Below are positions 1 through 14,500 of a stretch of 64,000 nt of DNA, one piece after another. Source of the DNA: Gammaproteobacteria bacterium (GTDB taxonomy: Bacteria > Pseudomonadota > Gammaproteobacteria > Steroidobacterales > Foliamicaceae); contig JAPOWV010000004.1 in the NCBI GenBank assembly GCA_026707445.1, positions 10,170 through 74,169 on the forward strand, given 5' to 3'. The stretch's first letter is position 1. Each line of letters starts with the position of its first letter. A program made the position numbers and the translations under genes. The notes under the pieces are model-generated. The model was not told where the DNA came from. It made no database searches and saw only the letters and a program-made list of their open reading frames with translations.

Positions 1-1
1 T

Positions 2-3000
2 CGCGGTAGCCGACTCACCGGCATTCAGGGTGACGGCGCGGTTGAGGTTATCGCTACCCGTGCTTACGGGCTGGATGCCGTCGAAGTAACCTGGAAGGGG
101 CCGGGCGGACTTGGGGAACGCATTCTCTACCGGGGCGACGAGGCCAGTCTGCAGGAAGTCGCTTCAGGCGGCCGCTTCGCGTTCGACGGCGATGGCCATG
201 CGTTCCGGCTAGCATCCGAAGCATTGCGGATTCGCTTGGCGCACTTGTTCGACCCGTTCGTGGCCGTGAATGCGTCTCTGATCGAACCCTTGCCGCATCA
301 GTTGACCGCGGTGTACGGGGCCATGCTGGACCGGCAGCCGTTGCGGTTTCTCCTGGCGGACGATCCCGGCTCCGGCAAGACGATTATGGCCGGCCTTCTT
401 ATCAAGGAACTGCTGATTAGGGGCAGTCTGGAGCGCTGCCTGATCATTGCGCCAGGCGGCTTGGTGGAGCAGTGGCAGGACGAGCTTTCCGACAAGTTCG
501 ATCTCCACTTTCAAATCATGAGCCGGGAGCAGATCGAGATGTCCGTTACCGGCAATCCATTCGTGGAACACCCCCGGTTGATTGCCCGGCTCGACATGCT
601 GGCGCGAAACGACGAACTGAAGGCCAAGCTTGAGGCGGCGCCGGAGTGGGACCTAGTGGTTTGCGACGAAGCGCACCGGATGTCGGCGAGCTTTTTTGGC
701 GCGGAAGTTAAGTACACGAAGCGCTACCAACTTGGTGCTCTTGCTGGCCGACAGGCGAGGCATTTCCTGCTGATGACGGCCACGCCGCACAACGGTAAGG
801 AGGAGGATTTCCAGCTCTTTATGGGGCTTCTGGACGAAGATCGATTCGAGGGACGCTTCCGCCAGGGCGTTCACAAGATCAATCCAGCGGACATGATGCG
901 CCGGCTCACCAAGGAAGAACTATTTCGCTTCGACGGCAGCCCACTATTCCCGGAACGCCGTGCCTACACGGTGTCGTACGAGCTTTCGCCCAAGGAAGCT
1001 AATCTGTACAGCGAAGTGACGCATTACGTGCGCGAGGAGATGAATCGTGCCGACCGGCTGGCCGATGATGGATCGCGCCGAAGGAACAACGTGGGCTTTG
1101 CCCTGCAAATCCTGCAGCGTCGCCTGGCCTCCTCGCCTGCTGCAATCCACGAGTCTCTCAAGCGCCGCCTGGGACGCCTCGAAACACGGCTGGAGGAAGA
1201 GAAGCTCGGCCGCAAGGGTGGAGGCGAAGCAGCCTCGCCACCGCCGCTTACGACCAGCTTAGGGCAGGAGTTGGACGAAGACGATCTCGAAGATGCGACC
1301 GGCGAAGAAATTGAGGCTCATGAGGATCGACTGCTCGACCTGGCCACGGCGGCGCAAACGATTGAGGAGCTTGAGGCCGAAATCGCAACGTTGCGAGAGC
1401 TGGAGAAGATGGCAAAGGCGCTTCGCCGGTCCGGTGAAGATACCAAGTGGCGCGAACTGGACCGGATTCTCGAAAACCCGCTGGTGCAGGATTCGTCGCG
1501 CGCTGGACGCCGCAAGCTTCTTATCTTCACCGAAGCCCGCGATACTCTCGAGTATCTGGCCGAGCGCATCCGCAACCGCACCGGCGAGGCGGACAGCGTA
1601 TCGGTAATCCACGGCGGTGTGCCGCGGGATCGTCGGCGCGCCGTCATTGCGGCTTTCAACGACGATCCGAAGGTGCGCTTTCTTGTTGCAAACGATGCGG
1701 CGGGGGAAGGCGTGAATCTGCAACGCGGCGCCCATCTGATGGTCAACTACGATCTTCCGTGGAACCCGAATCGTCTGGAGCAGCGCTTCGGCCGCATACA
1801 CCGGATTGGCCAGACGGAGGTGTGCCACCTCTGGAACCTGTTGGCCAGCGAGACTCGCGAAGGCGCAGTTTATGAGAGGCTGCTGACGAAGCTGGAAATT
1901 GCGCGCGACACGCTGGGCGGTAAGGTGTATGACGTGCTTGGCGAACTCTTCGCGGGGCGCCCTCTCGCGGAACTTCTTATGGAGGCCATTCGCTACGGCG
2001 ATCAGCCGGATGTGCGCGCCCGCCTGCTCCAGAGCATGGATGGCGTGGTTGACACGGACAATATCAACGCGCTGGTTACCCGCAATAAACTGACCCGGGA
2101 AGGGATTGATCCCATCACACTACGGACGCTGCGCGAGAATATGGAACGCGCTGCCGCCCGGCGGCTGCAGCCGCATCATGTCCGCTCCTTCTTCGAGGCG
2201 GCCTTTAGCGAATCAGGCGGCGTTATGCGCAGGCGAGAGCAGCGCCGGTTCGAGGTCAAGCGCGTGCCGCCCCTGCTGCGGGACCGCGACCGACTGATGG
2301 GGCGGGCGGACCCTGTTCTGCCCCGCTATCAGCGGATATGTTTCGATAAGGAGGCAGTTTCCGTTCAGCCGCAGGCGGTGCTGATGGCGCCGGGGCACCC
2401 GTTGCTGGACGCATTGATTGACTTGACTCTTGAACGCCACGGGGATGTTCTCACGCGGGGAACGGTATTGATCGACGAGGCGGACAGGCACAGCGCGCCG
2501 CGAGTTCTGATCGTGCTACGTCACATCATCCGGGATGGCAGGCAAACTCGGCATGGCAAGCCCCAGTCAATATCTGAGCGCCTACAGTTCGTTTGGCTCG
2601 ACAAATCGGGGCAAGCCTCGCAGGGCGGCGCAGCACCGTACCTCGACTGCCGCGCGCCCAATGAGGAGGAGAGGGAACAGCTCGCGGACTTGCTCAACGC
2701 ATCCTGGCTGAAGGAACCGCTGGAGGAGCACGCCCTGGAGCTTGCCGTCAGTCAACTGGTGCCTCGGCACCTCAGTGAAGTCAAGGAACGGCTGCTCCCG
2801 GAAATCGCCAAGATTGAGGCGGCGGTCAAGGAGCGCCTGCGCCGCGAGATCACGCATTTACAGCATCGTGCTTTTGAAGTGGAGGCCGAAGAACGCGCCG
2901 GCAAGAAACCACGCCTCAATTCGGAGAACATTCGCCGTCAGGCCAACGTGCTCACAGGGCGGCTGGAGCTTCGGTTGAAGGAAATCGCCCGCCAGCGGGA

Positions 3001-3535
3001 CATTGCGCCGCTTCCGCCCGAGATTTGCGGCGCCGCTGTGGTGGTTCCGGCTGGAATGGTCAGCTCGAAGCAGACGGCGCCTGAAGACGCGGGCCCTGTG
3101 GAAGACGCTCCGAATGCGCTTAGCCGCGCACAGGTCGAAGCCAGAGCAATGCAGGACGTGATGGAATGCGAGCGCAATTTGGGATTCGAGCCTCGCGACG
3201 TGTCGGACGAAGATCGTGGCTACGATATCGAAAGCCGCGACCCAGGCAATGGCGCACTTCGCTTCATCGAAGTAAAGGGTCGCCGCGCAGACGCGCGGGC
3301 GATTACTATCACCCGCAACGAAATGCTCACAGCGCTCAATGCGCAGAAGGCCTATATTCTGGCAGCGGTGCTGGTGGAAAAGGACATGGCTCACGCGCCG
3401 CTTTACGTGACGAATCCGGCTTCGCTATTCGGCCCCGAACCTGCGTTCAACGAGGTTTCTAGGTCGATCTCAGTCTCTTCCATCAAAGCGGCGGCGCAAG
3501 AGAACGCGACAAAGACCGGCCTGGCCCCGAAATGA
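2..3535 (+). CDS. Superfamily-2 (SNF2/DEAD-like) helicase with C-terminal DUF3883-like restriction-endonuclease-fold domain; 5' end lies outside the window
   Basis: Frame 2 is open from nt 2 (RGSRLTGIQGDG...FRLASEALRIRLAHLFDP), so the listed start at 224 (TTG) is internal. Helicase motifs: LLADDPGSGKTIMAG (I), VVCDEAHRM (II), LLMTATPHNGK (III), VANDAAGEGVNLQ (V), WNPNRLEQRFGRIHRIGQ (VI). C-terminus GYDIESRDPGNGALRFIEVKGRR..ITITRNEM resembles DUF3883. Confidence 0.9.
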   Translation, partial: RGSRLTGIQGDGAVEVIATRAYGLDAVEVTWKGPGGLGERILYRGDEASLQEVASGGRFAFDGDGHAFRLASEALRIRLAHLFDPFVAVNASLIEPLPHQLTAVYGAMLDRQPLRFLLADDPGSGKTIMAGLLIKELLIRGSLERCLIIAPGGLVEQWQDELSDKFDLHFQIMSREQIEMSVTGNPFVEHPRLIARLDMLARNDELKAKLEAAPEWDLVVCDEAHRMSASFFGAEVKYTKRYQLGALAGRQARHFLLMTATPHNGKEEDFQLFMGLLDEDRFEGRFRQGVHKINPADMMRRLTKEELFRFDGSPLFPERRAYTVSYELSPKEANLYSEVTHYVREEMNRADRLADDGSRRRNNVGFALQILQRRLASSPAAIHESLKRRLGRLETRLEEEKLGRKGGGEAASPPPLTTSLGQELDEDDLEDATGEEIEAHEDRLLDLATAAQTIEELEAEIATLRELEKMAKALRRSGEDTKWRELDRILENPLVQDSSRAGRRKLLIFTEARDTLEYLAERIRNRTGEADSVSVIHGGVPRDRRRAVIAAFNDDPKVRFLVANDAAGEGVNLQRGAHLMVNYDLPWNPNRLEQRFGRIHRIGQTEVCHLWNLLASETREGAVYERLLTKLEIARDTLGGKVYDVLGELFAGRPLAELLMEAIRYGDQPDVRARLLQSMDGVVDTDNINALVTRNKLTREGIDPITLRTLRENMERAAARRLQPHHVRSFFEAAFSESGGVMRRREQRRFEVKRVPPLLRDRDRLMGRADPVLPRYQRICFDKEAVSVQPQAVLMAPGHPLLDALIDLTLERHGDVLTRGTVLIDEADRHSAPRVLIVLRHIIRDGRQTRHGKPQSISERLQFVWLDKSGQASQGGAAPYLDCRAPNEEEREQLADLLNASWLKEPLEEHALELAVSQLVPRHLSEVKERLLPEIAKIEAAVKERLRREITHLQHRAFEVEAEERAGKKPRLNSENIRRQANVLTGRLELRLKEIARQRDIAPLPPEICGAAVVVPAGMVSSKQTAPEDAGPVEDAPNALSRAQVEARAMQDVMECERNLGFEPRDVSDEDRGYDIESRDPGNGALRFIEVKGRRADARAITITRNEMLTALNAQKAYILAAVLVEKDMAHAPLYVTNPASLFGPEPAFNEVSRSISVSSIKAAAQENATKTGLAPK

Positions 3536-6483
3536 TCATCCAGCGCAAGAAACTCATCGAAGTGTCGCTGCCGCTCGAAGCCATCAATGCGGCATCGGCG
3601 CGGGAGAAGTCCATCCGGCACGGCCACCCTTCAACTCTGCACCTGTGGTGGGCGCGTCGACCGCTCGCGGCCTGCCGGGCAGTGCTCTTTACCCAGCTTG
3701 TGGATGACCCGTCGTCCTGGCCCGACGAATACCCCACCGAGGAGGACCAAGCACGGGAGCGTGAGCGCCTCCACGGCATCATCAAGGATATGGTGCCTTG
3801 GAAGGCCACCAACAACGAACGTATCCTCGGCAAGGCGCGCTACGAAATTGCCAGATCGATCGCCCGCGGGCGCGGCGATACACTGCCGCAGGTCAACGAT
3901 AACGAGGCGGTGCTGGACTATCTTGCCGAGCACGCGCCGCCAGTCTGCGATCCATTCTGTGGCGGAGGTTCGATTCCGCTCGAAGCGCAACGCTTGGGCC
4001 TGCGCGCCCACGGTTCGGACCTCAATCCCGTCGCAGTGCTGGTCTCCAAGGCGACCTGCGAAATCCCGCCTAAGTTCGCCAATCGACCGCCCATCAATCC
4101 CGACCGTGATCTACATGTCACGTGGAAAGGTGCGCAGGGGCTGGCCGAGGACATTCGCTATTACGGCCGATGGATGCGTGATCAAGCGGAATCCCGCATC
4201 GGGCACCTCTATCCGAAGGTGCGAGTCACCAAGGCCATTGCGGCTGACCGAGACGAATTCAAGCCGTACGTCGGCAAGGACCTGACTGTCATCGCCTGGC
4301 TCTGGGCGCGAACGGTCGCGTCTCCGGATCCAATGATGCGCGGAAAGCATGTGCCGCTTGTCTCATCGTTGATGCTTTCCACGAAACCGGGGAAGAAAGC
4401 GTGGGCTGACATTCTTCGTGACGTCGCTTCACGGGATGGTTGGCGCTTCGAAGTCAATGCCGGAACGCTGGGTAAGGAGGACGAAACCAAAAAGAAACTG
4501 GGGACAAAAGCGGGAAAGGCGCAGGATTTCCTTTGCTGCCTGAGCGGGACACCTGTTCAGCGGACCTATATTCAACTCGAAGGCAAATCCGGGCATCTAG
4601 GCAAACGGTTGATGGCCATTGTGTTGGCTGGCTCCCGGGAGCGGCTTTATTTGTCACCTAACGATCTGCACGAAGGGATAGCTGAATCGCCTGAATTCGC
4701 AGAAATGACGTCAAGCGCGCGAAGCAAATTCCTGTCGGGCACCACGCCTACGCGCGCCATGATTACCGGGGGAGTGTGTTCGGCATACGGGTTTGCAACT
4801 TGGGGACACCTCTTCACCGATCGCCAACTCGTGGCTCTAACGACATTTTCGGGTCTGTTGGAAGAAGCACGCGAGCAGGTGCTGTCGGATGCGCGGGACG
4901 TTGTCGAGGGCTATGGCTCGGCGGCCGACTGGCTACAGGATACGACTTGTCTCGCTGATAATGGTACTGGCGCGCAGGCGTATGCCGATGCCGTAGCGAC
5001 CTACCTCGGATGTGCTGTCGACAAGGCCGCCGATTATTGGAGCGGGTTATGTAGCTGGCACTCGTCTGGCCAGAAGATGAGAAATACATTTGGCCGACAA
5101 GCGATTCCCATGGTTTGGGATTACGCAGAAGGCAATCCATTTTCTGCGTCGACCGGAAACTGGGTCGCTTGCACCGATTGGGTTTGGAAGGTCGTTGGCG
5201 CGTCTCCGGTAGCGGGCATTCAAGCAGCCGTGATACAGCAGGATGCCGCCGGAGAAACGCGACTTGCACACGACGCGATTGTCGCAACCGACCCCCCCTA
5301 CTATGACAACATCGGCTATGCAGAATTGTCGGACTTCTTCTACGTGTGGCAGCGTAGAACTCTGCGCAATGTTTGGCCGGACCTATTTCGCCGTGTCTTA
5401 GTGCCGAAGGATGAGGAATTAGTGGCCACTCCATACCGCCACGGCGGCAAGGCGGCGGCTGAGCAGTTCTTCATGGACGGCATCGGCAAGGCGCTCGCCA
5501 ATATGCACGCATCAGGACGAGATGATTTCCCAGTAACCATCTACTACGCTTTCAAACAGTCAGAGATTGCCAATGAGGGGTTGACTTCGCCTGGATGGGC
5601 AACGTTTCTCCACGCGGTGATCCAAGCGGGCTATGTTATCGGCGGCACATGGCCGGTCAGGACGGAGCTGGTCAACAAGATTATCGCTATCAACGCAAAC
5701 GTTCTCGCCTCCTCCATCGTCCTCGTCTGCCGCAAACGACCGCCGGATGCGCCGGTCATCACCCGCCGGGAGTTTGTGGCGCGGCTTCGCTCGACGCTGC
5801 CGGCTGCGTTGGCCAGAATTCGCGCCGGTGGCGTCGGTCCGGTGGACATGGCGCAGGCCTCAATCGGTCCGGGCATGGGAGTGTTCACAGCGGCAGCGAA
5901 GGTGCTGGAGCCGGACGACACGCCCATGACGGTACGCACGGCGATAGCGCTTATCAACCAGATTCGGGACGAAATCTCGGGCGAGGAGGCAACGGGCTAC
6001 GATGCCGACACTCGCTTTTGCATCGAATGGTTCGAGAACTTCGGAATGGACGAGGGCAAATCCGGGGATGCCATCACCATGGCCCAAGCCTACGACATCG
6101 GCATTGAGGATCTGGAAAACGCGGGTGTGTTTGACGCTCGAGGGGGATCGGCGCGCCTGCTGCGTCGCGACGAATTGCCGGGCGACTGGAATCCCGCCAC
6201 CGACAGGCGATTGACCGACTGGGAATGCGCTCAGCATCTGGCCCGCACGCTCGAATCGCCCGCAGGCGGAATCGAGACCGCCGCGAAGCTCTATGCGAAC
6301 ATGCCGCCGGAGCGTAGCGAGGCCGCGCGAATGCTCGCCTACCGCCTCTACGATATCTGCGAGCGCAAGGATCGTGCGGCGGAGGCGCAGGTTTGGAACA
6401 TGCTGGCGCGGGAGTGGACTGCGCTGGAAACCGCCGCCGCCGCCATTGAGCCGAAGCTCGGATCAGGGCAGCTTCTTCTTTGA
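3532..6483 (+). CDS. DUF1156-family DNA methyltransferase (N6-adenine/N4-cytosine type, DPPY motif)
   Basis: N-terminus KKLIEVSLPLEAINAASAREKSIRHGHPSTLHLWWARRPLAACRAVLF is the DUF1156 signature. SAM-binding motif VCDPFCGGGSIPLEAQRLG; catalytic ATDPPYYDNIGYAELSDFFYVW. Start ATG overlaps the helicase stop (ATGA at 3532-3535). Confidence 0.9.
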   Translation: MIIQRKKLIEVSLPLEAINAASAREKSIRHGHPSTLHLWWARRPLAACRAVLFTQLVDDPSSWPDEYPTEEDQARERERLHGIIKDMVPWKATNNERILGKARYEIARSIARGRGDTLPQVNDNEAVLDYLAEHAPPVCDPFCGGGSIPLEAQRLGLRAHGSDLNPVAVLVSKATCEIPPKFANRPPINPDRDLHVTWKGAQGLAEDIRYYGRWMRDQAESRIGHLYPKVRVTKAIAADRDEFKPYVGKDLTVIAWLWARTVASPDPMMRGKHVPLVSSLMLSTKPGKKAWADILRDVASRDGWRFEVNAGTLGKEDETKKKLGTKAGKAQDFLCCLSGTPVQRTYIQLEGKSGHLGKRLMAIVLAGSRERLYLSPNDLHEGIAESPEFAEMTSSARSKFLSGTTPTRAMITGGVCSAYGFATWGHLFTDRQLVALTTFSGLLEEAREQVLSDARDVVEGYGSAADWLQDTTCLADNGTGAQAYADAVATYLGCAVDKAADYWSGLCSWHSSGQKMRNTFGRQAIPMVWDYAEGNPFSASTGNWVACTDWVWKVVGASPVAGIQAAVIQQDAAGETRLAHDAIVATDPPYYDNIGYAELSDFFYVWQRRTLRNVWPDLFRRVLVPKDEELVATPYRHGGKAAAEQFFMDGIGKALANMHASGRDDFPVTIYYAFKQSEIANEGLTSPGWATFLHAVIQAGYVIGGTWPVRTELVNKIIAINANVLASSIVLVCRKRPPDAPVITRREFVARLRSTLPAALARIRAGGVGPVDMAQASIGPGMGVFTAAAKVLEPDDTPMTVRTAIALINQIRDEISGEEATGYDADTRFCIEWFENFGMDEGKSGDAITMAQAYDIGIEDLENAGVFDARGGSARLLRRDELPGDWNPATDRRLTDWECAQHLARTLESPAGGIETAAKLYANMPPERSEAARMLAYRLYDICERKDRAAEAQVWNMLAREWTALETAAAAIEPKLGSGQLLL

Positions 6484-6588
6484 GCGGCAATGCCTCAGGG
6501 TACACTCAGGTGTTCGCGGCCTTTTCGGCCTTTGTTTCCGGACAGGAATCTGTATCGCGCCTGTTGATGGTTCAATGAGCATCGCAAC

Positions 6589-9500
6589 ATGAGCGCCAGA
6601 AGCGCGGCGCAGCCAGCCAAGCAGCGGGTTGACCAGGGGCTTGAGGCGCTACGGCTTGCGCTAGCCCCCTATGTGGCGAAGCACATGCGCGACCGGCACG
6701 GCGAGGATTGGCAACGTTACGCCAGCCGAGCCCGGCCCCGTGGTTCCGCGGGTGAACTCGATCTGTACGGTCTTCTCAAGACCCTGTTAGACAACTGGAA
6801 CGACCTGTTCCGCCATGATCGGGAGGTCAGAAAGCGGCGCAGCTTTATTTCGATTTGCCTCGACGCCCGCAACGCGGCGGCCCATTTTGCGGGACGCATG
6901 GAGGATCGGGAAGCATTGCGGTATCTCGACGCCATGCGGGAACTCTGCTTGGCCGTAGGCGCGGGTGTGCAGACAAAGCGTATAGAAGGCCTTTACGAAC
7001 TGCAGCAGACTGCGAGTGCGCAGCTACCTTCGGCCAGTCTGGCGCTTGACGTGGAGCCGCCACCGCCAGCCCGGCTTGCTCCCTGGCGGGATGTATGCGA
7101 ACCCCATCCGGACGTGCTCGAGGCGCGATTTTCGGATGCCGAATTCGCGGCCAACCTGGCGCAGGTGGATCAGGGCGAAGGCGGGGAGGAGTACGCGAAT
7201 CCTGCCGCCTTCTTTCGCATTACGTACGCCACCGAGGGACTGCGTCGCGTTCTCACGAGCGCAATTGCCCGCCTCGCCGTCAAGGGTGGTGACCCGGTGA
7301 TCGGGCTGCAGACAAATTTTGGCGGGGGTAAAACGCACACCATGCTTGCGCTTCATCATGTGGCAGGTGCCTCCGAGGCGGGCTACAAACCGGAGGAACT
7401 TGCCGGGTTGGCCCCGATCTTCGATGCAGCTGGCGTTACTACTCTCGGTAGGGTAAGGCGAGCTGTTTTCGTGGGTACGCATAAGGGTGCCGCGGAGGTG
7501 ATGTACGTCGAAGGAGATCGTGAAATCCGCACCTTGTGGGGATACATCGCCTGGCGTCTCGGTGGATGGGAAGCCTTTGACCACATTGCCGCTTCGGAGG
7601 TGGCGCGCACCAACCCGGGCTCGGAACGCTTGATACCCATTCTTCGTGCCGCCGCGCCCTGCCTGATTCTCATGGATGAAGTCGTGGCCTTTGCACGCCA
7701 ACTGCGAGGACTGGAGTACGATGCCTTTCACGCTTTCGTTCAGTCGCTAACCGAGGCGGCTGCGGCGGTTCGGGGAGCAGTGGTGGTGGGATCATTGCCC
7801 GAATCGGGCGCCGAGGTGGGGGATGAGCAGGGGCGCGACGCCCTGCGGCGCCTGGAGAAGATATTCGGGCGTGTGCAGTCGGCATGGATGCCCGCCAGCG
7901 GCATCGAAACCTTCGAAATCGTCCGTCGCCGCCTGTTTCAGCCTTTGGATGAAGCGGGCGAAAAGGCCCGCGATGCAACTATCAGGGCTTTCCGCAAGCT
8001 CTACCGGGACAATCGCGCCGATTTTCCGCCATATGTCCGGGAACCGGCCTATGCAGAGGAAATGCGTAGCGCTTGGCCCATTCATCCGGAGGTGCTGCGC
8101 CGGTTTTCAGGCGATTGGTCGGTGCTTGACAAGTTTCAGCGCACCCGAGGAATCCTCAAGATCATGGCCAGCGTGGTGTATGCGCTTTGGAGCGGTGAGA
8201 GTAACGCGCCGCTGATTTTGCCCGCGCTGCTTCCGTTTCGCGACCCAAAGTCCCGGTCGGCGCTGCTTGAGCCTCTCAACCCGGTTTTCGGAGCCATTCT
8301 CGACTCCGAAGTGGATGGCGAGCAGTCTCTGACCGCCCGCATCGAAGCCCAGCGTCCGCGGTTGCTCAAGGCGCACGCGGCCACGCTCGCTGCTCGCTCG
8401 GTATTCTTCGCCACCGCGCCTCAAAATGGTGCGGTGCGAGGCGGAATGATGGGTGCCGAACTGCGCCTTTCCTGCGCCCAGCCGGGTGATCAGATTGCCA
8501 TTTACGGCGAGGCGCTGCAGGAGATCGCCTCACGTTCGGCCCACCTTTACCAAGACGAAAATCGCTATTGGTTCTCGCCCCAGCCGACCCTCAACAAGGT
8601 CGCCGCTGATCGCGCTCGGGACATCAATGATGAGCAGGCGGATCAGCGCATTATTGAATTCCTGCGCGAGGAGCGGCGATTCCGCGCCGGCTTTGCCAGG
8701 GTTCATGCAGCGCCCGATCATCCGGCCGATATTGACGATCAACGCTCCACAGCGCTTGTGATCTTGCCGCCTTCGAAGCCTCACGAATCAGGTGCCGGTT
8801 CGAACTCCGAGGCCGGTCTTGCCGCGGCCGAAACAATCGAGCGACGGGGCAGCGGACAACGTCGCTACCGCAATGCGCTGGTGTTCTTGGGACCTGACGC
8901 GGCGAACTTGGCTTCGGCTCGCGAAAATGCGCGCCGCGAACGGGCGTGGGCCTCAATACTCAAGGATAGCGATCTTCAGCAAAATCTCACGCGCGCACAG
9001 TTGGACAATGCACAAAAACAAGCGAGCCGCAGCCTTGATGCGCTTCGTCAGAGCGTTCGGGCCGCTTGGGTTCATGTGCTTTACCCGTCGTCTCCCGATG
9101 AAGGAGACACGGAATCGCGTCCCGACGTGGGATATGTCATACGCTCGACTCGGCTTGTCAACCGCGGCGGAGGCAAGGGCATCCCGCAGGCGGTTTGGGA
9201 CAAGGTAAGCACCGACGGTGGCGTGATTGCAGAGATGGGTCCTGCGAACCTTGCACAAAGCCTGGAGCCCGTCTGGCCCGCTGACGCAAAACATATCACC
9301 ATCGAGCAGATTCGAGACTGGTTCGCGTCCTATGTTTATTTACCCCGTCTGCGTGATGAAGTTGCGCTTGATGGTGCTGTGCGGCGCCTAGTTGCCGACC
9401 TCGCCTCGCCTTATGCGTTTGCGACCTCGTTCGATGAATCGGCGAACACCTATGAAGGTGTTGTGGAGGGCGAAATCGGACCGCTGACGGAGCTTGGGAC

Positions 9501-9882
9501 GGGTCTGCTTGTGCGTCGGGAAGCTCTTCAGAAGGAAGCGACCCTCGGTGAGCAGGAGGCGACAAAGAAGGAACAACAGCCCGCTGCTGGCGAAAAAGCT
9601 GGGGTCCGGGACAAGGAGCCGTCGGCAGCCAAACCACAACCCAAGCGGTTTTACGCAAGCCTGCCGATCGATTCGGACCTCGCGGGGCTTGAGGTGGCGC
9701 GCATCATGGACGGGCTGCTCGTGGAGCTTACGCGGACCGATGGATCCGACCTCAAACTCACCCTAGAGATTGAAGGGACCTCGACGAGCGAAGGCTACCC
9801 GAAAGATGTCGTGGATACCGTCAAGGCGAACGCGCGCGACCTCAAGCTGGACACGGAGTCATTTGGTTTTGAGGAGGATTGA
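6589..9882 (+). CDS. DUF499-family P-loop ATPase with N-terminal Swt1-like HEPN domain
   Basis: Walker A LQTNFGGGKTHTMLAL and Walker B-like CLILMDEVVAF. N-terminal region ..ICLDARNAAAHFAG carries an R-x4-H HEPN motif (nt 6868-6885). 1097 aa, co-directional, 105 nt after the methylase. Confidence 0.85.
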   Translation: MSARSAAQPAKQRVDQGLEALRLALAPYVAKHMRDRHGEDWQRYASRARPRGSAGELDLYGLLKTLLDNWNDLFRHDREVRKRRSFISICLDARNAAAHFAGRMEDREALRYLDAMRELCLAVGAGVQTKRIEGLYELQQTASAQLPSASLALDVEPPPPARLAPWRDVCEPHPDVLEARFSDAEFAANLAQVDQGEGGEEYANPAAFFRITYATEGLRRVLTSAIARLAVKGGDPVIGLQTNFGGGKTHTMLALHHVAGASEAGYKPEELAGLAPIFDAAGVTTLGRVRRAVFVGTHKGAAEVMYVEGDREIRTLWGYIAWRLGGWEAFDHIAASEVARTNPGSERLIPILRAAAPCLILMDEVVAFARQLRGLEYDAFHAFVQSLTEAAAAVRGAVVVGSLPESGAEVGDEQGRDALRRLEKIFGRVQSAWMPASGIETFEIVRRRLFQPLDEAGEKARDATIRAFRKLYRDNRADFPPYVREPAYAEEMRSAWPIHPEVLRRFSGDWSVLDKFQRTRGILKIMASVVYALWSGESNAPLILPALLPFRDPKSRSALLEPLNPVFGAILDSEVDGEQSLTARIEAQRPRLLKAHAATLAARSVFFATAPQNGAVRGGMMGAELRLSCAQPGDQIAIYGEALQEIASRSAHLYQDENRYWFSPQPTLNKVAADRARDINDEQADQRIIEFLREERRFRAGFARVHAAPDHPADIDDQRSTALVILPPSKPHESGAGSNSEAGLAAAETIERRGSGQRRYRNALVFLGPDAANLASARENARRERAWASILKDSDLQQNLTRAQLDNAQKQASRSLDALRQSVRAAWVHVLYPSSPDEGDTESRPDVGYVIRSTRLVNRGGGKGIPQAVWDKVSTDGGVIAEMGPANLAQSLEPVWPADAKHITIEQIRDWFASYVYLPRLRDEVALDGAVRRLVADLASPYAFATSFDESANTYEGVVEGEIGPLTELGTGLLVRREALQKEATLGEQEATKKEQQPAAGEKAGVRDKEPSAAKPQPKRFYASLPIDSDLAGLEVARIMDGLLVELTRTDGSDLKLTLEIEGTSTSEGYPKDVVDTVKANARDLKLDTESFGFEED

Positions 9883-10101
9883 ACGGTAGGACCAGATGCG
9901 GGCGTCCCGCCCTCCGCCTGGCCTGTCAGTATCGTGGCCCTCCCGCGCATCTAATGCCGGCTTCGTGACCTGCATGCATACCACCTCGTAGTTTTCCCAA
10001 GCTCTTGTGCTTGCGATGTGATAAGCACTGGCGCTTTGGGCTCATCCTGCGAAGGGTTTCTCTTACAATTGCCTTACTCACAAATTCCCGGAGGAATTGT
10101 G

Positions 10102-10377
10102 ATGCCAGCGCTTGAGCGGCTCATGACTACCGTTTCTACACAGGGTCAGATCATCCTGCCCAAGGCCATTCGCCAGGCTTTGGGCTGGGAAGCGGGGGAA
10201 AAGCTGATTGTGGAGCAGGTCCGGGAAGGTGTGGTGCTTAGGCCGTTGCCGATGTTTGCTGCGACCACACCCAGCGAGGTGTTCGGATACCTGAGGTTCG
10301 GTGGCGCCTCGAAGACCGTCGAGAAAATGAACGCCGGCATCCCGGCGGAGGCAAAGCGGCGTCATGAAGGCGGTTGA
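10102..10377 (+). CDS. AbrB/MazE/SpoVT-family antitoxin
   Basis: TVSTQGQIILPKAIRQALGWEAGEKLIVEQVREGVVLRP is a typical SpoVT-AbrB swapped-hairpin motif. ATG at 10102 is preceded by GGAGGA (10091-10096). The ORF-track start at 10018 is probably too far upstream. Confidence 0.8.
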   Translation: MPALERLMTTVSTQGQIILPKAIRQALGWEAGEKLIVEQVREGVVLRPLPMFAATTPSEVFGYLRFGGASKTVEKMNAGIPAEAKRRHEGG

Positions 10378-10450
10378 CACCAATGTCGTCGTTCGCTACC
10401 TGACCGGCGACGACCCGTCGCAGGCAGCAAGGGCCAGAAGCGCAATTGAT
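10364..10450 (+). pseudogene. Truncated PIN-domain toxin (VapC) remnant, first ~29 codons only
   Basis: MKAVDTNVVVRYLTGDDPSQAARARSAI matches the start of VapC/PIN toxins (first acidic residue in DTNV) and overlaps the antitoxin stop. After ~aa 29 the frame is just the alternative frame of the next gene and loses all PIN similarity. Confidence 0.65.
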
Positions 10451-10691
10451 GGAGGCAAAAGATATGACAGACTGGAACACCTGTCCGGCGGTGGAACGAA
10501 AGCCGGGAAGAGTCAGCGGGGCGTGGGTTTTCACCGGCACGCGGATTCCTTTGTCGGCACTTTACGAGAACCTTGCCGGCGGCGCTACGGTGGATGAGTT
10601 CGTCGAGTGGTTCCCGGGCGTCGATGAGAAGCAGGTTCGCACGGTGCTCGAGCACGAAGCTCAAGCGTTGAGAATGGCATTGGCACGTTGA
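10446..10691 (+). CDS. DUF433-family protein (putative antitoxin)
   Basis: PGRVSGAWVFTGTRIPLSALYENLAGGATVDEFVEWFPGVDEKQVRTVLEH fits the DUF433 pattern (GTRIPV..aG.s.eEi...yP.l). Start could be 10446, 10449 or 10464. Confidence 0.7.
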   Translation: MMEAKDMTDWNTCPAVERKPGRVSGAWVFTGTRIPLSALYENLAGGATVDEFVEWFPGVDEKQVRTVLEHEAQALRMALAR

Positions 10692-11020
10692 AGCTGCTAT
10701 TCGATCAAGGCACACCTGCACCTCTGCGGAAGCACATCGCATCGCATTCCGTGGATACGCTGGCGGAGAAGGGTTGGTCCGAAAAGGATAACGGCGAGTT
10801 ACTCGATCTCGCCGAGCAGGAGGGATACGAGGTCCTAGTGACGACCGACCAAAGCATGCGGCACCAACAGAATGTGGAGGGCAGGCACATTGGCATTGTC
10901 GTTTTGCTTTCGGCGAACTGGCTGCAAGTGCGCGATCACACGTTGGAAGTAGTTAAAGCGATCGCCGCCGTCCAGCCAGGAAGGGTCATCGAGGTGCCGG
11001 TCCGGTCGCAAGAGACATGA
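10688..11020 (+). CDS. DUF5615-family (Mut7-C/PIN-like) putative toxin
   Basis: MKLLFDQGTPAPLRKHI...DNGELLDLAEQEGYEVLVTTDQSM fits the DUF5615 pattern. TTG start overlaps the DUF433 stop (TTGA at 10688-10691). DUF433-DUF5615 is a recurrent two-gene TA-like pair. Confidence 0.65.
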   Translation: MKLLFDQGTPAPLRKHIASHSVDTLAEKGWSEKDNGELLDLAEQEGYEVLVTTDQSMRHQQNVEGRHIGIVVLLSANWLQVRDHTLEVVKAIAAVQPGRVIEVPVRSQET

Positions 11021-11030
11021 GTACGAGCGC

Positions 11031-11861
11031 ATGACCTATCGCATCGGCATCATCGGAACCGGCGCCGCGCCGACCGGGACCAATGTCCCGCCCGCGCCCA
11101 TCAGGGAAATCGCCGCGGTCGGCTTCGCGCCGGAACTGATCGAACCGCGCCTGCGCACCTTCCCGATGACGCCGTACGATCGGGGCCTGACGGCGCTGGC
11201 CTACCTGGACTGCGCGCTGGAAGCGGAGAAGGCGGGATTCGACGCCGTGTTCATCAATACCGTGGGCGACTACGGTATCGACGAGATGAAATCGGCGACC
11301 TACATGGTGGTCGTCGGCGCCGGCGAAGCGACCATGGCCATGTGCGTGAACACCGGCCGCCGTTTCTCCATCGTCACGGTCTGGCCCCCCAAACTGAACT
11401 TCATTCAGCAGGAGCGGCTGAACAGTTGCGGCATGCAGGACCGCTGTGCGTCCATTCGCAACGTCCAGGAGGACCGTGAAGTCGAAGGGGTCGAACAGGC
11501 CGCCGCCACCACTGCAGGCCTGAAGGATCGGAATGAATCGCTGAAGAGACGCATCGTCGACGCCATCAACGCGGCGGTATCCGAAGACGGCGCCGACACC
11601 ATCATGCTCGGCTGCACCTGCATGGCGCACGTCGGTCCCGACGTCGCGGCGCAGGTGAACGTGCCGGTCTTCGAGTCCATGCGCACCGGCTACAAGACCG
11701 CCGAAGCGCTGCTCACGCTCGGCGTGCGCCACAGCGACGCCGCCTACCCCAAACCCAACCCCGACAATCTCAGCGCTGTGGGCGCGCTGGTCGCCGGCCA
11801 GGGCAACATGGACCTGGGTGGCGACTGCGAAGTCTGCCTGACCCCCGAAGACGAAGCGTAG
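11031..11861 (+). CDS. Asp/Glu/hydantoin racemase family protein
   Basis: RIGIIGTG.., GFDAVFINTVGDYGIDE, GRRFSIVTVWPP and GADTIMLGCTCMAHV..VNVPVFESMRTGYKTAEALLTLG match the two-cysteine racemase fold pattern. Confidence 0.6.
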   Translation: MTYRIGIIGTGAAPTGTNVPPAPIREIAAVGFAPELIEPRLRTFPMTPYDRGLTALAYLDCALEAEKAGFDAVFINTVGDYGIDEMKSATYMVVVGAGEATMAMCVNTGRRFSIVTVWPPKLNFIQQERLNSCGMQDRCASIRNVQEDREVEGVEQAAATTAGLKDRNESLKRRIVDAINAAVSEDGADTIMLGCTCMAHVGPDVAAQVNVPVFESMRTGYKTAEALLTLGVRHSDAAYPKPNPDNLSAVGALVAGQGNMDLGGDCEVCLTPEDEA

Positions 11862-11899
11862 ACGTCCTGACGGGCGGTCAGACTCGCCATCCGGCTCGG

Positions 11900-14365
11900 T
11901 TAGAAGTTGTAGGCGAGGCGGATGCCGTAGCTCCTCGGTATGGGAGCCGAGACGCGGACTTCGTTCTTGTTCGGACCGCGAATGAAGGTGAACAGGTCAA
12001 CGCCGAGACCACCCTGTATGAACTCGTCGTGATCCAGCGCGTTCTCGACGAAGGCCTCGACCGAAAGACTCGAACCGCGCAGGCCGATGCGAACATTCAC
12101 GTTGTCGTAGGGCGACGTTTTCGCGATATTGGAAAAATCCGTATAGCGGCTGCCCTGGTGCGCCCAGTCCACCCGTCCGTACCAGTCCCAGTCGCCCATC
12201 AGATTGTCTTCGTACTGACCTGAAACGGCCCAGGTGACTCGCGGGGCGCTGGGCAATTCATTGCCGACCACGCCGTCGAAGCTGCCGTAGACCAGGTTGC
12301 AGTCGCCGCAAACGAAGGACTTCACCTCGGTATCGTTGAGGCCGTATGAGGCGGCGAACGTCAGGTTCTCGGTGGCCTGAAACTGGCCTTCAAACTCGAT
12401 GCCTCTGAGTTCCGCCGTGCCGTTATTCAGCACGATGTTGATCAGGTTGGCCACGCCGTCGGCAACCACGGGAATGCTGTTGCCCACCTGCCCGTTCAGC
12501 CATTCATCGTAGTACAGGGCCAGGGTGGTCCGGGCACGGCCTCCCAGCCAGGTGGCTTTCCAACCGAACTCGTAGTTGTCGAGCTTCTCCTCGAGAATGT
12601 TGAGGCCGGCCGTGGGCGCCACGGCCCTGAGCGCATCCAGCACGGCCTGGCTTGCGCCGGCCAGCACCGCGTTGAAGCGTCCCGGTCGAAAACCGCGCGA
12701 ATACAGCACGTAAACCGTCGAGTTGTCCGCGTACTTGTAGTCCAGCGAGATGCGCGGAGCAAAGCTCGTGAAGGTCGCGCTGAAGGCCAGCGGCGATTCG
12801 GGAGGGAGCTGATTGACGCCGATCAGCGTGTTCTCGGAGATCTTGTCCCACTGATAGCGCGCTTCGGCGCTCAGGGTCAGTTTGGGCGTGATGTCGTAAT
12901 AGGCGGCGCCGAACACGGCGGGCGTTTCGACTTCGCGTTCAACGATGGCCGCCGTGAAGAACGGACCGACGATCAGGTTGCCGTACACGGTCTGGCCCGG
13001 CGAATACGCGTCAAAGTAGTTGAAGCCCGCGACCCAGCGAAGGCGCTTGTCCTGAGGCGAAGTGACGCGGAACTCCTGGCTCCAGTCCTCCTGCTCGCTC
13101 TGGATCGCCAGCGTGGTATTCCAGTCCGGACGGATGTCCGTGCGGCCGAGCACGCCGATGAACAGGGGCGCGAAAGGGTTGGGCCGTGAGCGGCCGTCCC
13201 GGTAGTTCAGGTCGATGACGTTCTGGTTCTTGTCGGTATGGAATGCCGACAGCGAGGTGAACGAATAACCGGACGAATGTTCGAAGTCGATGCGCAGGCT
13301 GGTCTGGAAGGCCTCACGCTTGAGTCCCGGCGCCCGATGGAAGTCGGGATCGAACACCAGCCAGTTGGGATTGGGATCGAACAGGGTTTTCTCGAGGATC
13401 GGATCGATCACCGTGTCGGCGGAAAAGATCGCCGGGTCCACCTCGCCCATGCTCGGCAGTTCGCCGCAAACGTAGCCGAACGCGGCGCGCGAACCTTCCT
13501 GCACGCCCGGGCGAAGCGGCGCGCTCAACGGATCGCAGCTGCCGTCGATATTGCCGCGCCCATTGAATTGATCCTGCTTGAGCGCGAACTGCGTGGCGGA
13601 CCAGTCTTCGTCCACGAAGAAATTGACGAACAGCTTTGCCTTCAGCGAGTCTGTGGGCGTGAAAACGATTGAAGTGGAAATGGAATTGGTGGTGCGTTCG
13701 CCCAGTTCGTCGGACGGGTCGGCATAGTTGTCGATGTAACCCCCCTGACGCCAGTGCCGGCCGCTGACCCGCATCGACAGCTTGTCCCTGACGAGGGGAC
13801 CCTCGACCATGATGTGCTGTTCGTTGGATCCGAAACTTGAAAAATCGGTGGAAATACGGCCGCCGAATTCATCGCCGGGTTCCTTCATCACGAAATTCAG
13901 GGCGCCGACGAAGGTGGACCGGCCGAAATATGCGCTCTGCGGGCCTTTCAGGATCTCGACGCGCTCGGTGTCGACAATGCTGGGCGAGTAGCCGCCAACC
14001 ACAGGGGCGCCGTCGATGAACAGCAGTCCGCCGGCGTTGATGCCCACGTTGATGTTCAGGTACAGGCCCCGGAACACCAGGGCGTTGCGCGAACGGTCAT
14101 TGCGCCCCGAGCCGCCCTGCTGGTTGGTGAAGCTGAGACTGGGCGTATACAACTGAATGTCGGTCAGCTCCGCCATATTGATGGATTCCAGTTCCTCCGC
14201 GGAGAAGGCCGTAATGGCCAGCGGCACTTCCATCAGGTTCTCTTCGACCTTTCGGGCCGTCACCACGATTTCTTCCAGCGCCAGTTCCTGCGCGCTTGCC
14301 GGTGTGCCCGAAAGCACGATAAACGGGATCGCCGCGGCGACGGCCGCAATCAAAAAACGTCTCAT
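11900..14365 (-). CDS. TonB-dependent outer-membrane receptor
   Basis: Signal peptide MRRFLIAAVAAAIPFIVLSGTPASAQE from the ATG at 14365; plug-domain motifs EEIVVTARK and ERVEILKGPQSAYFGRS; C-terminal SYGIRLAYNF. Confidence 0.9.
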   Translation of the reverse strand: MRRFLIAAVAAAIPFIVLSGTPASAQELALEEIVVTARKVEENLMEVPLAITAFSAEELESINMAELTDIQLYTPSLSFTNQQGGSGRNDRSRNALVFRGLYLNINVGINAGGLLFIDGAPVVGGYSPSIVDTERVEILKGPQSAYFGRSTFVGALNFVMKEPGDEFGGRISTDFSSFGSNEQHIMVEGPLVRDKLSMRVSGRHWRQGGYIDNYADPSDELGERTTNSISTSIVFTPTDSLKAKLFVNFFVDEDWSATQFALKQDQFNGRGNIDGSCDPLSAPLRPGVQEGSRAAFGYVCGELPSMGEVDPAIFSADTVIDPILEKTLFDPNPNWLVFDPDFHRAPGLKREAFQTSLRIDFEHSSGYSFTSLSAFHTDKNQNVIDLNYRDGRSRPNPFAPLFIGVLGRTDIRPDWNTTLAIQSEQEDWSQEFRVTSPQDKRLRWVAGFNYFDAYSPGQTVYGNLIVGPFFTAAIVEREVETPAVFGAAYYDITPKLTLSAEARYQWDKISENTLIGVNQLPPESPLAFSATFTSFAPRISLDYKYADNSTVYVLYSRGFRPGRFNAVLAGASQAVLDALRAVAPTAGLNILEEKLDNYEFGWKATWLGGRARTTLALYYDEWLNGQVGNSIPVVADGVANLINIVLNNGTAELRGIEFEGQFQATENLTFAASYGLNDTEVKSFVCGDCNLVYGSFDGVVGNELPSAPRVTWAVSGQYEDNLMGDWDWYGRVDWAHQGSRYTDFSNIAKTSPYDNVNVRIGLRGSSLSVEAFVENALDHDEFIQGGLGVDLFTFIRGPNKNEVRVSAPIPRSYGIRLAYNF

Positions 14366-14500
14366 CGTTAGTCCCCTCCAAACAATGCAGCCCCGGGAAG
14401 AGCCGCAGGCATGGGCTTCATGGCGAAGCCCGGTTAGCGCCAAAAGCATAACCGACACCCCACCGCACGAAAAAGCGAGGTGCTACCCTAGCCCACAAAG

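Follow-up and report, generated by a model that had tools for sequence, protein, structure and literature searches.

Anantharaman et al. drew attention to the Hma architecture in 2013, around Ava_2192 (PMC3710099); it was named in 2021 by Payne et al. in PADLOC (PMC8565338), and was reclassified in 2026 by Rakesh and Krishnan as the Type-1 DUF499-centred BREX-related (BR) system (PMC12839542). The last authors count 2446 taxa with Type-1 BR systems, 1370 with a HEPN fusion and 1076 (~44%) without, and find a helicase-REase fusion in 79%. In their descriptions the helicase also has a TUDOR domain at its N-terminus and an inactive REase, the ATPase ends in a wHTH/RRM tail and the methylase has an HTH triad at its C-terminus; in BR methyltransferases the target-recognition domain is nested in the catalytic core. 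The Hma triad of ATPase, methylase and helicase mirrors BrxC, BrxXI and BrxHII of Type-3 BREX (PMC12839542).

Experimental information comes from the single experiment on an Hma system and from a homologous system. In the first, Halomonas hmaA alone defends E. coli against phage T4 by ~100-fold, and this protection requires helicase motif VI and the nuclease glutamate, E1104 being the residue mutated in the assays; the nuclease domain is reported to be a nickase, hmaA without the methylase is non-toxic in E. coli, T4 propagated on an HmaB-expressing host is still restricted by HmaA, and hmaB or hmaC is absent beside ~15-20% of hmaA homologues (PMC11232893). The second is MANTIS (Gao_RL, Gao_29 or Type-2 BR, with proteins MtsA-D), for which a 2026 preprint by Shaw et al. 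describes how asymmetric 6-bp sites become hemimethylated after loading by the ATPase; both the AAA+ ATPase and MtsB are needed for methylation, and restriction needs both ATPases (bioRxiv 10.64898/2026.09.23.753747).

An intact Hma locus on an acquired island

The window analysed here, a whole stretch of 64,000 nucleotides from an uncultivated gammaproteobacterium, opens with three co-directional plus-strand genes, hmaA, hmaB and hmaC, whose frames are all intact (Table 1). The preliminary description gave them as three very large genes of >1103, 983 and 1097 residues; the last two lengths stand, but the first was counted from an internal TTG, and the window holds 1177 residues of HmaA. That the 5' end of hmaA is cut by the window edge, as also described, is borne out by a metagenome contig identical in sequence to window positions 1-13108: the full gene there (L001:6447-10004) encodes 1185 residues, so that 8 codons alone are missing. 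The ATGA shared by the hmaA stop and the hmaB start (3532-3535, a 4-nt overlap) and the 105-nt spacing between hmaB and hmaC (6484-6588) are both exactly as first read.

Table 1. Features of the Hma locus and its downstream genes (window coordinates)
Feature	Position	Strand	Remarks
hmaA, SNF2-family helicase-nuclease	1..3535	+	5'-truncated by window edge; frame open from position 2
SNF2/SF2 ATPase motor of HmaA	281..1810	+	Pfam ResIII/SNF2-rel_dom/Helicase_C
HmaA motor motifs	GSGKT (Walker A) 368-382; DEAH 665-676; motif VI QRFGRIHR 1781-1804	+
NOV_C (DUF3883) PD-(D/E)XK nuclease domain of HmaA	3134..3388	+	Pfam NOV_C
NOV_C predicted catalytic residues	D 3224-3226; E-x-K 3269-3277; extra E 3320-3322	+
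hmaB, DUF1156 N6-adenine DNA methyltransferase	3532..6483	+	983 aa; PADLOC HmaB and Pfam DUF1156
DUF1156 domain of HmaB	3568-3777	+	aa 13-82; Pfam 2.8e-32
HmaB motif I, DPFCGGG	FCGGG 3955-3969	+	aa 140-146
Variable HmaB insert between motifs I and IV	4372..4971	+	aa 281-480; presumed target-recognition domain
HmaB motif IV, DPPY	5290-5301	+	aa 587-590
hmaC, HEPN-fused DUF499 AAA+ ATPase	6589..9882	+	1097 aa; PADLOC HmaC and Pfam
Swt1-type HEPN domain, HmaC N-terminus	6634..6960	+	Rx4H motif RNAAAH at 6868-6885; Pfam HEPN_Swt1
HmaC Walker motifs	GGGKT (Walker A) 7321-7335; Walker B DE 7675-7680	+	100% conserved, 43 homologues
Degenerate TA module	10102..10456	+	MazE/AbrB-type antitoxin 10102-10377; PIN-like toxin remnant 10364-~10456
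DUF433/DUF5615 pair	10464..11020	+	DUF433 10464-10691, DUF5615 10688-11020, 4-nt overlap; last island genes

HmaA matches the PADLOC model PDLC00659 with E = 0 (1518.5 bits, profile positions 11-1172 of 1176), HmaB matches PDLC00660 and PDLC00661 near full length (1166.7 and 1139.4 bits) and HmaC matches PDLC00662 at 1.1e-232 (773 bits, profile 3-939 of 941, aa 163-1092); E-values of 0 to 1e-232 exclude chance open reading frames. PADLOC defines Hma by each gene occurring once, on a single strand, with at most three embedded genes between and no pseudogene, and the models, copy number, strand, spacing and frames found here all agree with this. The name Hma, given in the preliminary description, is backed by models that match over essentially whole lengths, and the Pfam and PADLOC check proposed there recovers DUF1156, DUF499, NOV_C (formerly DUF3883) and SNF2/Helicase_C. 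We conclude that hmaA-hmaB-hmaC is an intact copy of the catalogued Hma, or Type-1 DUF499-centred BR, system. The trio cannot be called novel, having been noted in 2013, named in 2021 and reclassified in 2026, and it contributes little to what is known of Hma, being a further intact copy in a family of ~2400 taxa. Novelty is limited to the conserved Hsp90/sacsin-like ATPase gene that lies upstream.

The catalytic modules are well preserved. In HmaA, Pfam finds SNF2-rel_dom, ResIII and Helicase_C followed by NOV_C (1.6e-19); the motor motif residues are invariant among 79 homologues, and by sequence RapA is the nearest motor of solved structure (1.7e-34). Conservation of the predicted nuclease residues D1083, E1098, K1100 and E1115, numbered on the full-length protein, is 99-100%, and they correspond to D1084, E1104, K1106 and E1121 of Halomonas HmaA. 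In HmaB, the DUF1156 signature and DPPY motif of the first reading are both present, and motif I and DPPY are invariant. Between them lies an insert whose identity to 55 homologues falls to 0.28-0.41, with gaps, against 0.5-0.76 elsewhere; it is presumed to be the target-recognition domain, in agreement with the nested position of this domain in BR methyltransferases. HmaC carries HEPN_Swt1 (1.1e-14) and DUF499 (1.3e-24), its HEPN residues R94, N95 and H99 are 100% conserved, and variable stretches are found at aa 801-880 and aa 961-1040 (43 homologues). Sequence searches of HmaB and of HmaC against the PDB found nothing.

These proteins show the following Type-1 BR features: a Swi2/Snf2 helicase with an additional C-terminal PD-(D/E)XK REase that keeps its conserved residues, an N6-methyltransferase with an N-terminal DUF1156 and a variable insert inside the catalytic core, and a DUF499 AAA+ ATPase with the optional N-terminal HEPN, in which Walker A/B and Rx4H are invariant. 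No stand-alone restriction enzyme occurs among the island genes, as had been supposed, and the two embedded nuclease modules suspected instead, NOV_C and HEPN, are both found by Pfam with catalytic residues intact and invariant.

The locus agrees with catalogued Hma in all three proteins and in domain order, strand and gene order; it has the fusions of HEPN to DUF499 and of SNF2 to NOV_C, and a DUF1156 methylase that carries a nested variable insert, and no essential difference is seen. Across 80 relatives the three genes keep one orientation and are inherited together, and HEPN is fused to the HmaC-type ATPase in 49 of the 56 examined. The window copy differs in being compact, with no embedded genes, whereas insertions separate hmaA and hmaB in 51 of 71 relatives examined here (~63-66% in the literature). 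It would thus make a convenient minimal construct for Hma biochemistry, to define which motif is methylated, whether methylation depends on HmaC and what HEPN does.

The island setting proposed at first reading is also confirmed. In sister genomes the site is empty, with purD abutting a racemase gene, which identifies the Hma locus as a 15.5-kb insertion. The island is strain-specific and of lower GC content (0.593, against 0.672 and 0.623); its right boundary lies at ~11026 by empty-site comparison with L164, and no integrase is found within its exact empty-site boundaries. At 90% identity, the clusters that hold HmaB and HmaC have 1 and 3 members, compared with 70-94 for neighbouring housekeeping genes. 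That the island was acquired horizontally is confirmed, and the empty site offers a clean natural experiment with exact island boundaries. Genes called on it are those for the upstream GHKL ATPase, hmaA, hmaB and hmaC, a 38-aa ORF, and the mazE-like, DUF433 and DUF5615 genes. Of the two TA modules said to follow the operon, the DUF433/DUF5615 pair (Pfam 1.3e-12 and 8.4e-07) is intact and is a putative HTH antitoxin with a PIN-like toxin. The other is degenerate: its antitoxin matches Pfam MazE_antitoxin (4.5e-10), but only ~31 N-terminal codons of the toxin remain, beginning MKAVDTNVVV, after which the family character is lost, and the 77-aa ORF that holds this remnant has no Pfam match.

Relation to MANTIS, BREX and DISARM

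All three proteins also match a second set of models that corresponds to MANTIS MtsD, MtsC and MtsA: HmaA matches PADLOC PLD_Helicase (1.9e-30) and NCBIfam phospholipD_antiphage (1.3e-48), HmaB matches DUF1156_MTase (3e-21) and DUF1156_antiphage (3.8e-33), and HmaC matches DUF499 (2.6e-31) and DUF499_antiphage (2.9e-41). The DUF499 AAA+ ATPases of Hma and MANTIS are homologous, as are their N6-adenine methylases of the DUF1156 type, and in both the effector is an SF2 helicase-nuclease, with cross-matches of 1e-21 to 1e-48. They differ in other respects. Hma has no gene for MtsB (DUF3780/DUF3870), carries its nuclease as a C-terminal PD-(D/E)XK (NOV_C) domain and not as an N-terminal PLD/HKD domain, and has HEPN fused to its ATPase. 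The NCBIfam MANTIS-type scores of 141, 115 and 166 bits compare with equivalog cut-offs of 1200, 1000 and 1100, and the HmaA matches cover the helicase part alone (aa 337-646 and 455-639), far below cut-off. An assignment to MANTIS or Gao_RL was rejected, the MtsB gene being absent among the island genes and HmaA having no Pfam PLD domain. MANTIS is the best mechanistic template for Hma.

Type-3 BREX comprises BrxC, PglXI/BrxXI, BrxHII, PglZ, BrxA and BrxF. HmaA matches PADLOC BrxHII at 4.5e-98, and among the three proteins matches to BrxHI or BrxHII are confined to this helicase. HmaC has no HMMER match to BrxC models, so the link to BrxC rests on the published structural comparison. BREX of any type has the PglZ phosphatase with BrxA and BrxB/F-type proteins; by Pfam family, none of these is seen in the genes called for the island contig. 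The Hma effector, unlike that of Type-3 BREX, is a REase-fold nuclease. In the called island genes Pfam finds neither DUF3780/MtsB, which marks Type 2, nor a stand-alone PglZ, which marks Type 3.

The closest sequence relative of HmaA outside Hma is DrmD (PADLOC 5.4e-116; NCBIfam 390.7 bits), the SNF2 helicase of class 1 DISARM, which acts with the DrmMI adenine methylase and DrmA/B/C. Both systems are methylation-associated defences, but DrmD lacks the NOV_C domain present in HmaA. The locus was not assigned to class 1 DISARM: the DISARM_DrmD score lies below its cut-off of 610 bits, and the island contig has no DrmA, DrmB (DUF1998) or DrmC (PLD) in its set of called genes.

A proposed restriction-modification-like scheme and its alternatives

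How might the three proteins act together? The preliminary description held that no mechanism was known. This is still partly true of Hma itself, but anti-T4 and nickase activities are reported for HmaA, and the mechanism of MANTIS has been defined. We favour, with a probability of about 0.6, a four-step defence that is gated by ATP and resembles restriction-modification. HmaB, through DPPY and its variable recognition insert, would methylate a short host-specific motif as a mark of self. HmaC, an ORC/Cdc6-type AAA+ ATPase homologous to MtsA and BrxC, would load and gate HmaB on DNA and couple recognition of unmodified sites to the effector. HmaA would be recruited to those sites, translocate on dsDNA by its SNF2 motor and nick or cut through its PD-(D/E)XK (NOV_C) domain. 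The HEPN domain of HmaC might then serve as a backup RNase that could stop translation when DNA restriction fails. We infer these steps for Hma itself, with the methylated motif and the role of HEPN, from what is observed here, namely the protein identities, invariant catalytic residues, variable recognition region, MANTIS-type homology of all three proteins and island status.

Across 43-79 homologues, conservation of the catalytic residues is 99-100% in the helicase, nuclease, methylase, AAA+ and HEPN modules alike, implying selection on every activity, and the variable regions of HmaB and HmaC fit expectation for specificity and sensor modules. The protection from T4 by hmaA alone, its non-toxicity and the failure of HmaB to protect T4 are not classical restriction-modification behaviour, however, and would be explained if HmaA were an autonomous, methylation-independent nuclease of the Nhi/Hna type that senses a phage-specific DNA structure or modified DNA, with HmaB and HmaC separate or merely modulatory and no self/non-self marking for HmaA. 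The hmaA homologues that stand without hmaB or hmaC are consistent with this. We nevertheless regard it as unlikely, in both its parts, given the co-orientation and co-inheritance of the three genes and the 100% conservation of the methylase and AAA+ catalytic motifs. The DNA of T4, moreover, is glucosyl-hydroxymethylated, which makes this phage a poor test of protection by adenine methylation. The ~15-20% of hmaA homologues that lack hmaB or hmaC, and the absence of MtsB from Hma, also sit uneasily with a restriction-modification-like mechanism.

The intact and fully conserved Rx4H motif, and the frequency of the HEPN fusion both in our relatives and in the 2446 taxa surveyed, raise a different prospect, in which the HEPN RNase of HmaC is the real effector, released when foreign DNA is sensed by the AAA+, helicase and methylase machinery, to cause growth arrest or death and not DNA restriction. 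The Halomonas study did propose a 'non-canonical Abi' behaviour at high MOI, but that phenotype came from hmaA alone, with HEPN absent, and the DNA and membranes of the cells stayed intact (PMC11232893). With ~44% of Type-1 BR systems lacking HEPN, and 79% having the helicase-REase fusion (PMC12839542), abortive infection is the less probable of these two alternatives by some way. Least probable, and in our judgement very improbable, is an epigenetic, regulatory or DNA-repair module that is mobile by chance. SNF2 motors such as RapA and orphan adenine methylases do have housekeeping roles, and Payne et al. find that Hma is not typically enriched beside other defence systems; against this stand the strain-specific insertion missing from sister genomes, the known defence systems often embedded in Hma operons according to the literature (with hmaA-hmaB inserts in 51 of 71 relatives here), the demonstrated anti-T4 activity, the two nuclease modules and the hypervariable specificity regions.

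A GHKL ATPase gene upstream of hmaA

The suggestion that a partner gene might lie upstream proved correct. An Hsp90/sacsin-like GHKL ATPase gene, encoding 1412 residues, lies 63 nt upstream of hmaA, outside the window, and exposes a large unannotated family tied to hma genes. This family comprises at least 1628 sequence clusters, has hma neighbours in 79 of 80 metagenome loci, and is found beside them in every examined locus with enough flanking sequence; it is not mentioned in the Hma or BR papers examined. Its usual place is between hmaA and hmaB, where the reading frames mostly overlap, probably reflecting translational coupling. The order here is permuted, GHKL-hmaA-hmaB-hmaC compared with the usual hmaA-GHKL-hmaB-hmaC.

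The nearest catalogued protein is TmtA of Tiamat, with which it has in common an N-terminal sacsin/Hsp90-like GHKL ATPase region (PADLOC TmtA 6.5e-47, profile positions 73-391 of 1486, ~320 positions). The remaining ~1000 residues, however, are unrelated to any model, and the family is hma-linked, in contrast to the stand-alone gene of Tiamat. With the alignment confined to the N-terminus and not extending over full-length TmtA, the gene was not assigned to Tiamat. The GHKL ATPase probably acts with HmaA, either as an optional fourth subunit or as a regulator. Whether it goes further, as a dedicated fourth subunit that defines an unrecognised four-gene Hma/Type-1 BR subtype and not an independent Tiamat-like system, we rate at slightly under even odds; the permuted arrangement in the window genome would then, with the same near-balanced caution, be a rare form of that subtype. 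If the GHKL protein is a real subunit, three-gene Hma/BR-1 models are incomplete for ~1/6 of the relatives sampled here. It could act as an ATP-driven dimerising clamp that gates or loads HmaA, or could fill the co-activator role that MtsB has in MANTIS. Plant NO VEIN has a similar domain composition, pairing a sacsin-type GHKL domain with NOV_C.

Identity and conservation of the Hma operon

The locus is real and correctly named, and it is an unexceptional, intact representative of a family that is already known and has been much studied of late. The reading frames agree with the preliminary description of three large co-directional genes in positions 1-9882 (see table), the ATG of hmaB and the TGA of hmaA sharing ATGA at 3532-3535 and hmaC following hmaB after 105 nt. 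Only the length of the helicase, put there at more than 1103 aa, has to be revised; that figure takes an internal TTG at 224 as the start, whereas the frame in the window is longer. Two metagenome contigs with the same locus, L001 and L002, are identical to positions 1-13108 and encode exactly the same methylase. On these contigs full-length HmaA has 1185 aa, the window thus being without its first 8 codons only (MVRLEQIV).

Matches to the PADLOC models for HmaA (1518.5 bits, profile positions 11-1172 of 1176), HmaB (1166.7 bits, near full length) and HmaC (773 bits over aa 163-1092, with the HEPN domain outside the model) settle the name Hma, which had already been proposed for the trio. Pfam recovered all the expected families and HEPN in addition: SNF2-rel_dom/ResIII/Helicase_C and NOV_C, formerly DUF3883 (1.6e-19), in the helicase, DUF1156 (2.8e-32) in the methylase, and HEPN_Swt1 (1.1e-14) with DUF499 (1.3e-24) in the ATPase. 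The motifs GSGKT, DEAH, DPPY, RNAAAH and GGGKT are all present, as had been reported. A sequence search of the PDB gave no match at E ≤ 0.01 for HmaB and HmaC, and for HmaA returned generic SNF2 motors only, with RapA at the top.

Relatives were sampled as 80 loci with HmaA homologues (51-80% identity) on one-genome-per-species contigs, neighbours being mapped by tblastn. Wherever the contig extends far enough, hmaB and hmaC lie 3' of hmaA on the same strand, and hmaC carries a HEPN fusion in 49 of 56 loci. An insert of at least 300 nt separates hmaA from hmaB in 51 of 71 loci; the window copy belongs to the compact minority that has none. In alignments of 43-79 homologues the catalytic residues are each 99-100% conserved, namely GxGKT, DEAH, QRFGRIHRIG and the nuclease residues D1083, E1098, K1100 and E1115 in HmaA, DPFxGGG and DPPY in HmaB, and GGGKT, the Walker B DE and HEPN R94/N95/H99 in HmaC. 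Variability in HmaB is focused on aa 281-480, which lie between motifs I and IV of the methylase and presumably form a nested target-recognition insert; the variable stretches of HmaC are aa 121-160, 801-880 and 961-1040. Since all three genes are intact, the system looks functional, to judge by its sequence. A promoter and terminator scan of 6300-10500 gave counts no higher than those for shuffled sequence and is uninformative on an internal hmaC promoter.

Features of the Hma locus and its surroundings (window positions unless a contig is named)
Feature	Position	Strand	Size	Remark
GHKL ATPase gene	L001:2145-6383	co-directional with hmaA	1412 aa	beyond the window
hmaA	open frame from 2 to stop at 3535	+	1177 aa inside window	SNF2 helicase-nuclease
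hmaB	3532-6483	+	983 aa	methylase
hmaC	6589-9882	+	1097 aa	ATPase
PIN/VapC-like toxin remnant	10364-10456		~31 codons	3' of MazE-type antitoxin
Left island junction	L001:~1970			junction comparison
Right island junction	~11026			junction comparison
Empty site	L164:9978-9996			sister MAG comparison
Racemase gene	11031-11861			
TonB-dependent receptor gene	11900-14458	-	852 aa	
Lowest-GC stretch (0.52)	31561-34926			Eco57I/MmeI-type enzyme
PPK2 gene	34966-35934			
T5orf172 ORF	38853-39674		273 aa	

Models for Hma action

The statement in the preliminary description that this trio had been noted earlier was right, and the field has since advanced. Anantharaman et al. (2013) described a DUF499 AAA+ ATPase bearing a Swt1-type HEPN domain, exactly the architecture seen here, with a methylase and an SNF2 helicase-DUF3883 fusion as operon partners, DUF3883 being 'a novel REase domain' (PMC3710099). 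The name Hma was coined by Payne et al. (2021), who counted 1638 instances in 26 phyla (PMC8565338), and a 2024 preprint by the same authors found embedded genes in 62.7% of Hma systems, many of them defence systems. Hma was reclassified by Rakesh and Krishnan (2026) as the Type-1, DUF499-centred BREX-related system, with a restriction-modification-like model; their census covers 2446 taxa, with the HEPN fusion in 1370 and the helicase-REase fusion in 79% (PMC12839542). Liu et al. (2024) found that Halomonas hmaA alone gives E. coli ~100-fold protection against T4, which R610A (motif VI) abolishes and E1104A (nuclease domain) lowers; HmaA alone was not toxic, T4 propagated with HmaB was still unprotected, and the abstract reports nickase activity for the NOV_C domain (PMC11232893).

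In the sister system MANTIS (Type-2, Gao_RL), described in 2026, the AAA+ ATPase MtsA acts as the loader of the methyltransferase MtsC; aided by MtsB, MtsC hemimethylates asymmetric 6-bp sites. Restriction requires the full set of four proteins, with both ATPases needed, and peaks on inverted site pairs (bioRxiv 10.64898/2026.09.23.753747). The make-up of MANTIS matches the PLD_Helicase/DUF1156_MTase/DUF499 model trio, to which the window proteins are homologous (1.9e-30, 3e-21 and 2.6e-31 with PADLOC; 1.3e-48, 3.8e-33 and 2.9e-41 with NCBIfam). Their scores all fall far under the equivalog cut-offs, implying that they are relatives and not members.

How might the three proteins act together? 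Judging from homology with MANTIS and the pattern of conservation, HmaB most likely marks a host-specific adenine motif, while HmaC would gate and load HmaB and link the effector to the sensing of unmodified sites. HmaA would then translocate and nick or cut, with HEPN probably serving as a backup RNase. Our analysis establishes the protein identities, the intact active sites, the variable specificity region and the island status of the locus; others have demonstrated the HmaA phenotype and the logic of MANTIS, and the functions of HmaB, HmaC and HEPN in Hma are ones that we infer throughout.

The main tension for this methylation-based model is that Halomonas hmaA is active alone and is harmless without its own methylase (PMC11232893). 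It is this behaviour that keeps alive the alternative in which HmaA is an autonomous sensor-nuclease. T4 carries modified DNA, however, which makes the Halomonas T4 assay a weak test of protection by methylation. That Hma is primarily abortive and driven by HEPN is less likely, because HEPN is absent from ~44% of systems, and a role for the locus outside defence is very unlikely.

The upstream GHKL ATPase gene

A partner gene had been suspected upstream of the cut operon, and on L001 a gene for an Hsp90/sacsin-like GHKL ATPase does end 63 nt 5' of hmaA. This Hma-linked gene is the sole element of the locus that may be new. Its family comprises at least 1628 sequence clusters, annotated only as 'sacsin N-terminal ATP-binding-like domain-containing protein', 'ATPase' or 'hypothetical'. 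In the Hma and BREX-related papers examined, with supplementary tables covered partly, we found no mention of it, which is absence of evidence only; three GHKL accessions and sacsin/Tiamat were likewise not found in the covered part of the tables of Payne et al., where absence is unproven.

The N-terminus is of the sacsin/Hsp90 type (NCBIfam P_loop_sacsin, 1.3e-20); Pfam SACS is barely over its cut-off (34.2 against 32.8 bits) and HATPase_c_3 is slightly below threshold. Residues of the Bergerat fold are invariant: E48, N52 and D55 (ELLQNADD motif), D78 and G102xxG105xG107. The AlphaFold model of P0019, which belongs to this family, is confident for residues 1-770 only, the C-terminal third being unmodelled; the predicted fold matches the N-terminal and middle domains of Hsp90/TRAP1 and the N-terminal domains of MutL, and no nuclease fold was recognised in these residues. 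Searching the PDB with a profile of the family gave no meaningful match. We rejected the defence protein Tiamat (TmtA) as the identity of the gene, since the PADLOC Tiamat models align to residues 1-~350 only (~21% of the model covered) and linkage to Hma is obligate (79/80 loci).

Among the 80 HmaA-relative loci, 13 encode a full-length GHKL protein (42-66% identity). It lies directly 3' of hmaA in 12 of these, with hmaB beyond it in 10 and a contig end cutting it off in the other 2; L057, the closest relative (80% HmaA identity), has it 5' of hmaA, as does the window genome. A reciprocal search of metagenome contigs with an alignment of 12 GHKL sequences gave 80 best full-length matches, which were kept, and 327 weaker ones beyond them. 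Within the best 80, at least one hma gene adjoins GHKL in 79 loci; hmaA is immediately 5' in all 67 whose upstream flank exceeds 1.5 kb, and hmaB is 3' in 60 of the 63 whose downstream flank does. An overlap of 4 nt between the hmaA stop and the GHKL start is typical, and that of the GHKL stop with the hmaB start spans 8-14 nt; further cassettes are located between GHKL and hmaB. Among cultured isolates, Rhodopseudomonas pseudopalustris (GCA_900110435.1, contig FODT01000005.1; GHKL protein WP_092683740.1) has the genes arranged as hmaA-GHKL-hmaB-HEPN-hmaC.

That GHKL is a core, vertically co-inherited component of Hma is only partly supported. Distances between GHKL proteins track those between HmaA proteins (Mantel r = 0.69, reached by 0 of 999 permutations), but presence on the HmaA tree is patchy, with close sister loci that have no GHKL, and we conclude that GHKL is accessory and optional and does not belong to the core.

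The island and its surroundings

The Hma locus is a horizontally acquired island with housekeeping genes on both sides: purH and purD to its left and, to its right, genes for an Asp/Glu racemase, a TonB-dependent receptor and an amine oxidase. In sister MAGs (e.g. GCA_009845905.1; contigs L164-L167), chosen by a racemase at least 90% identical to that of the window, nothing separates purD from the racemase gene, which it overlaps. The entire block, ~15.5 kb between the purD 3' end and the racemase start by BLASTN and junction inspection, is thus a strain-specific insertion; it holds the GHKL gene, hmaA, hmaB, hmaC, a MazE/AbrB-type antitoxin with a toxin remnant, and a DUF433/DUF5615 pair. The insertion swapped out 18 bp and rewrote the C-terminal residues of PurD. 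GC content is 0.593 within the island and 0.672 and 0.623 on its two sides. No direct repeats of 6 nt or more were found at the junctions and no integrase among the genes called on the contig; a scan of the window found no tRNA, which argues against tRNA-linked integration. At 90% identity the racemase and PPK2 clusters have 94 and 70 members on many contigs, the named ones all 'MAG: Gammaproteobacteria bacterium', compared with 1 for HmaB and 3 for HmaC, implying that Hma genes are rare in this gammaproteobacterial population.

Two toxin-antitoxin modules had been described after the operon. The DUF433/DUF5615 pair is indeed intact; the MazE/AbrB-type pair is decayed, its PIN/VapC-like toxin being reduced to ~31 N-terminal codons (MKAVDTNVVVRYLTGDD...). 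The intact pair begins where this remnant breaks off, which suggests that one module displaced part of the other.

Beyond the island, in an ungapped comparison, the window and L001 lose register from 13109, within the TonB-dependent receptor gene, which suggests an indel or strain difference there; the receptor has 823 and 821 aa as called on the contigs. Finally, the stretch of lowest GC encodes an Eco57I/MmeI-type fused restriction-methylase (748 aa; MmeI_hel, MmeI_Mtase and Eco57I domains) and then, in another frame, a 346-aa ORF with a TaqI_C specificity domain. The two are either one type IIG/IIL enzyme, split or frameshifted, or a variant encoded by two genes. Another region of reduced GC (38-42 kb, 0.56-0.59) holds an ORF with a T5orf172 domain (Pfam 1.5e-05), which may be another mobile or defence-associated gene.
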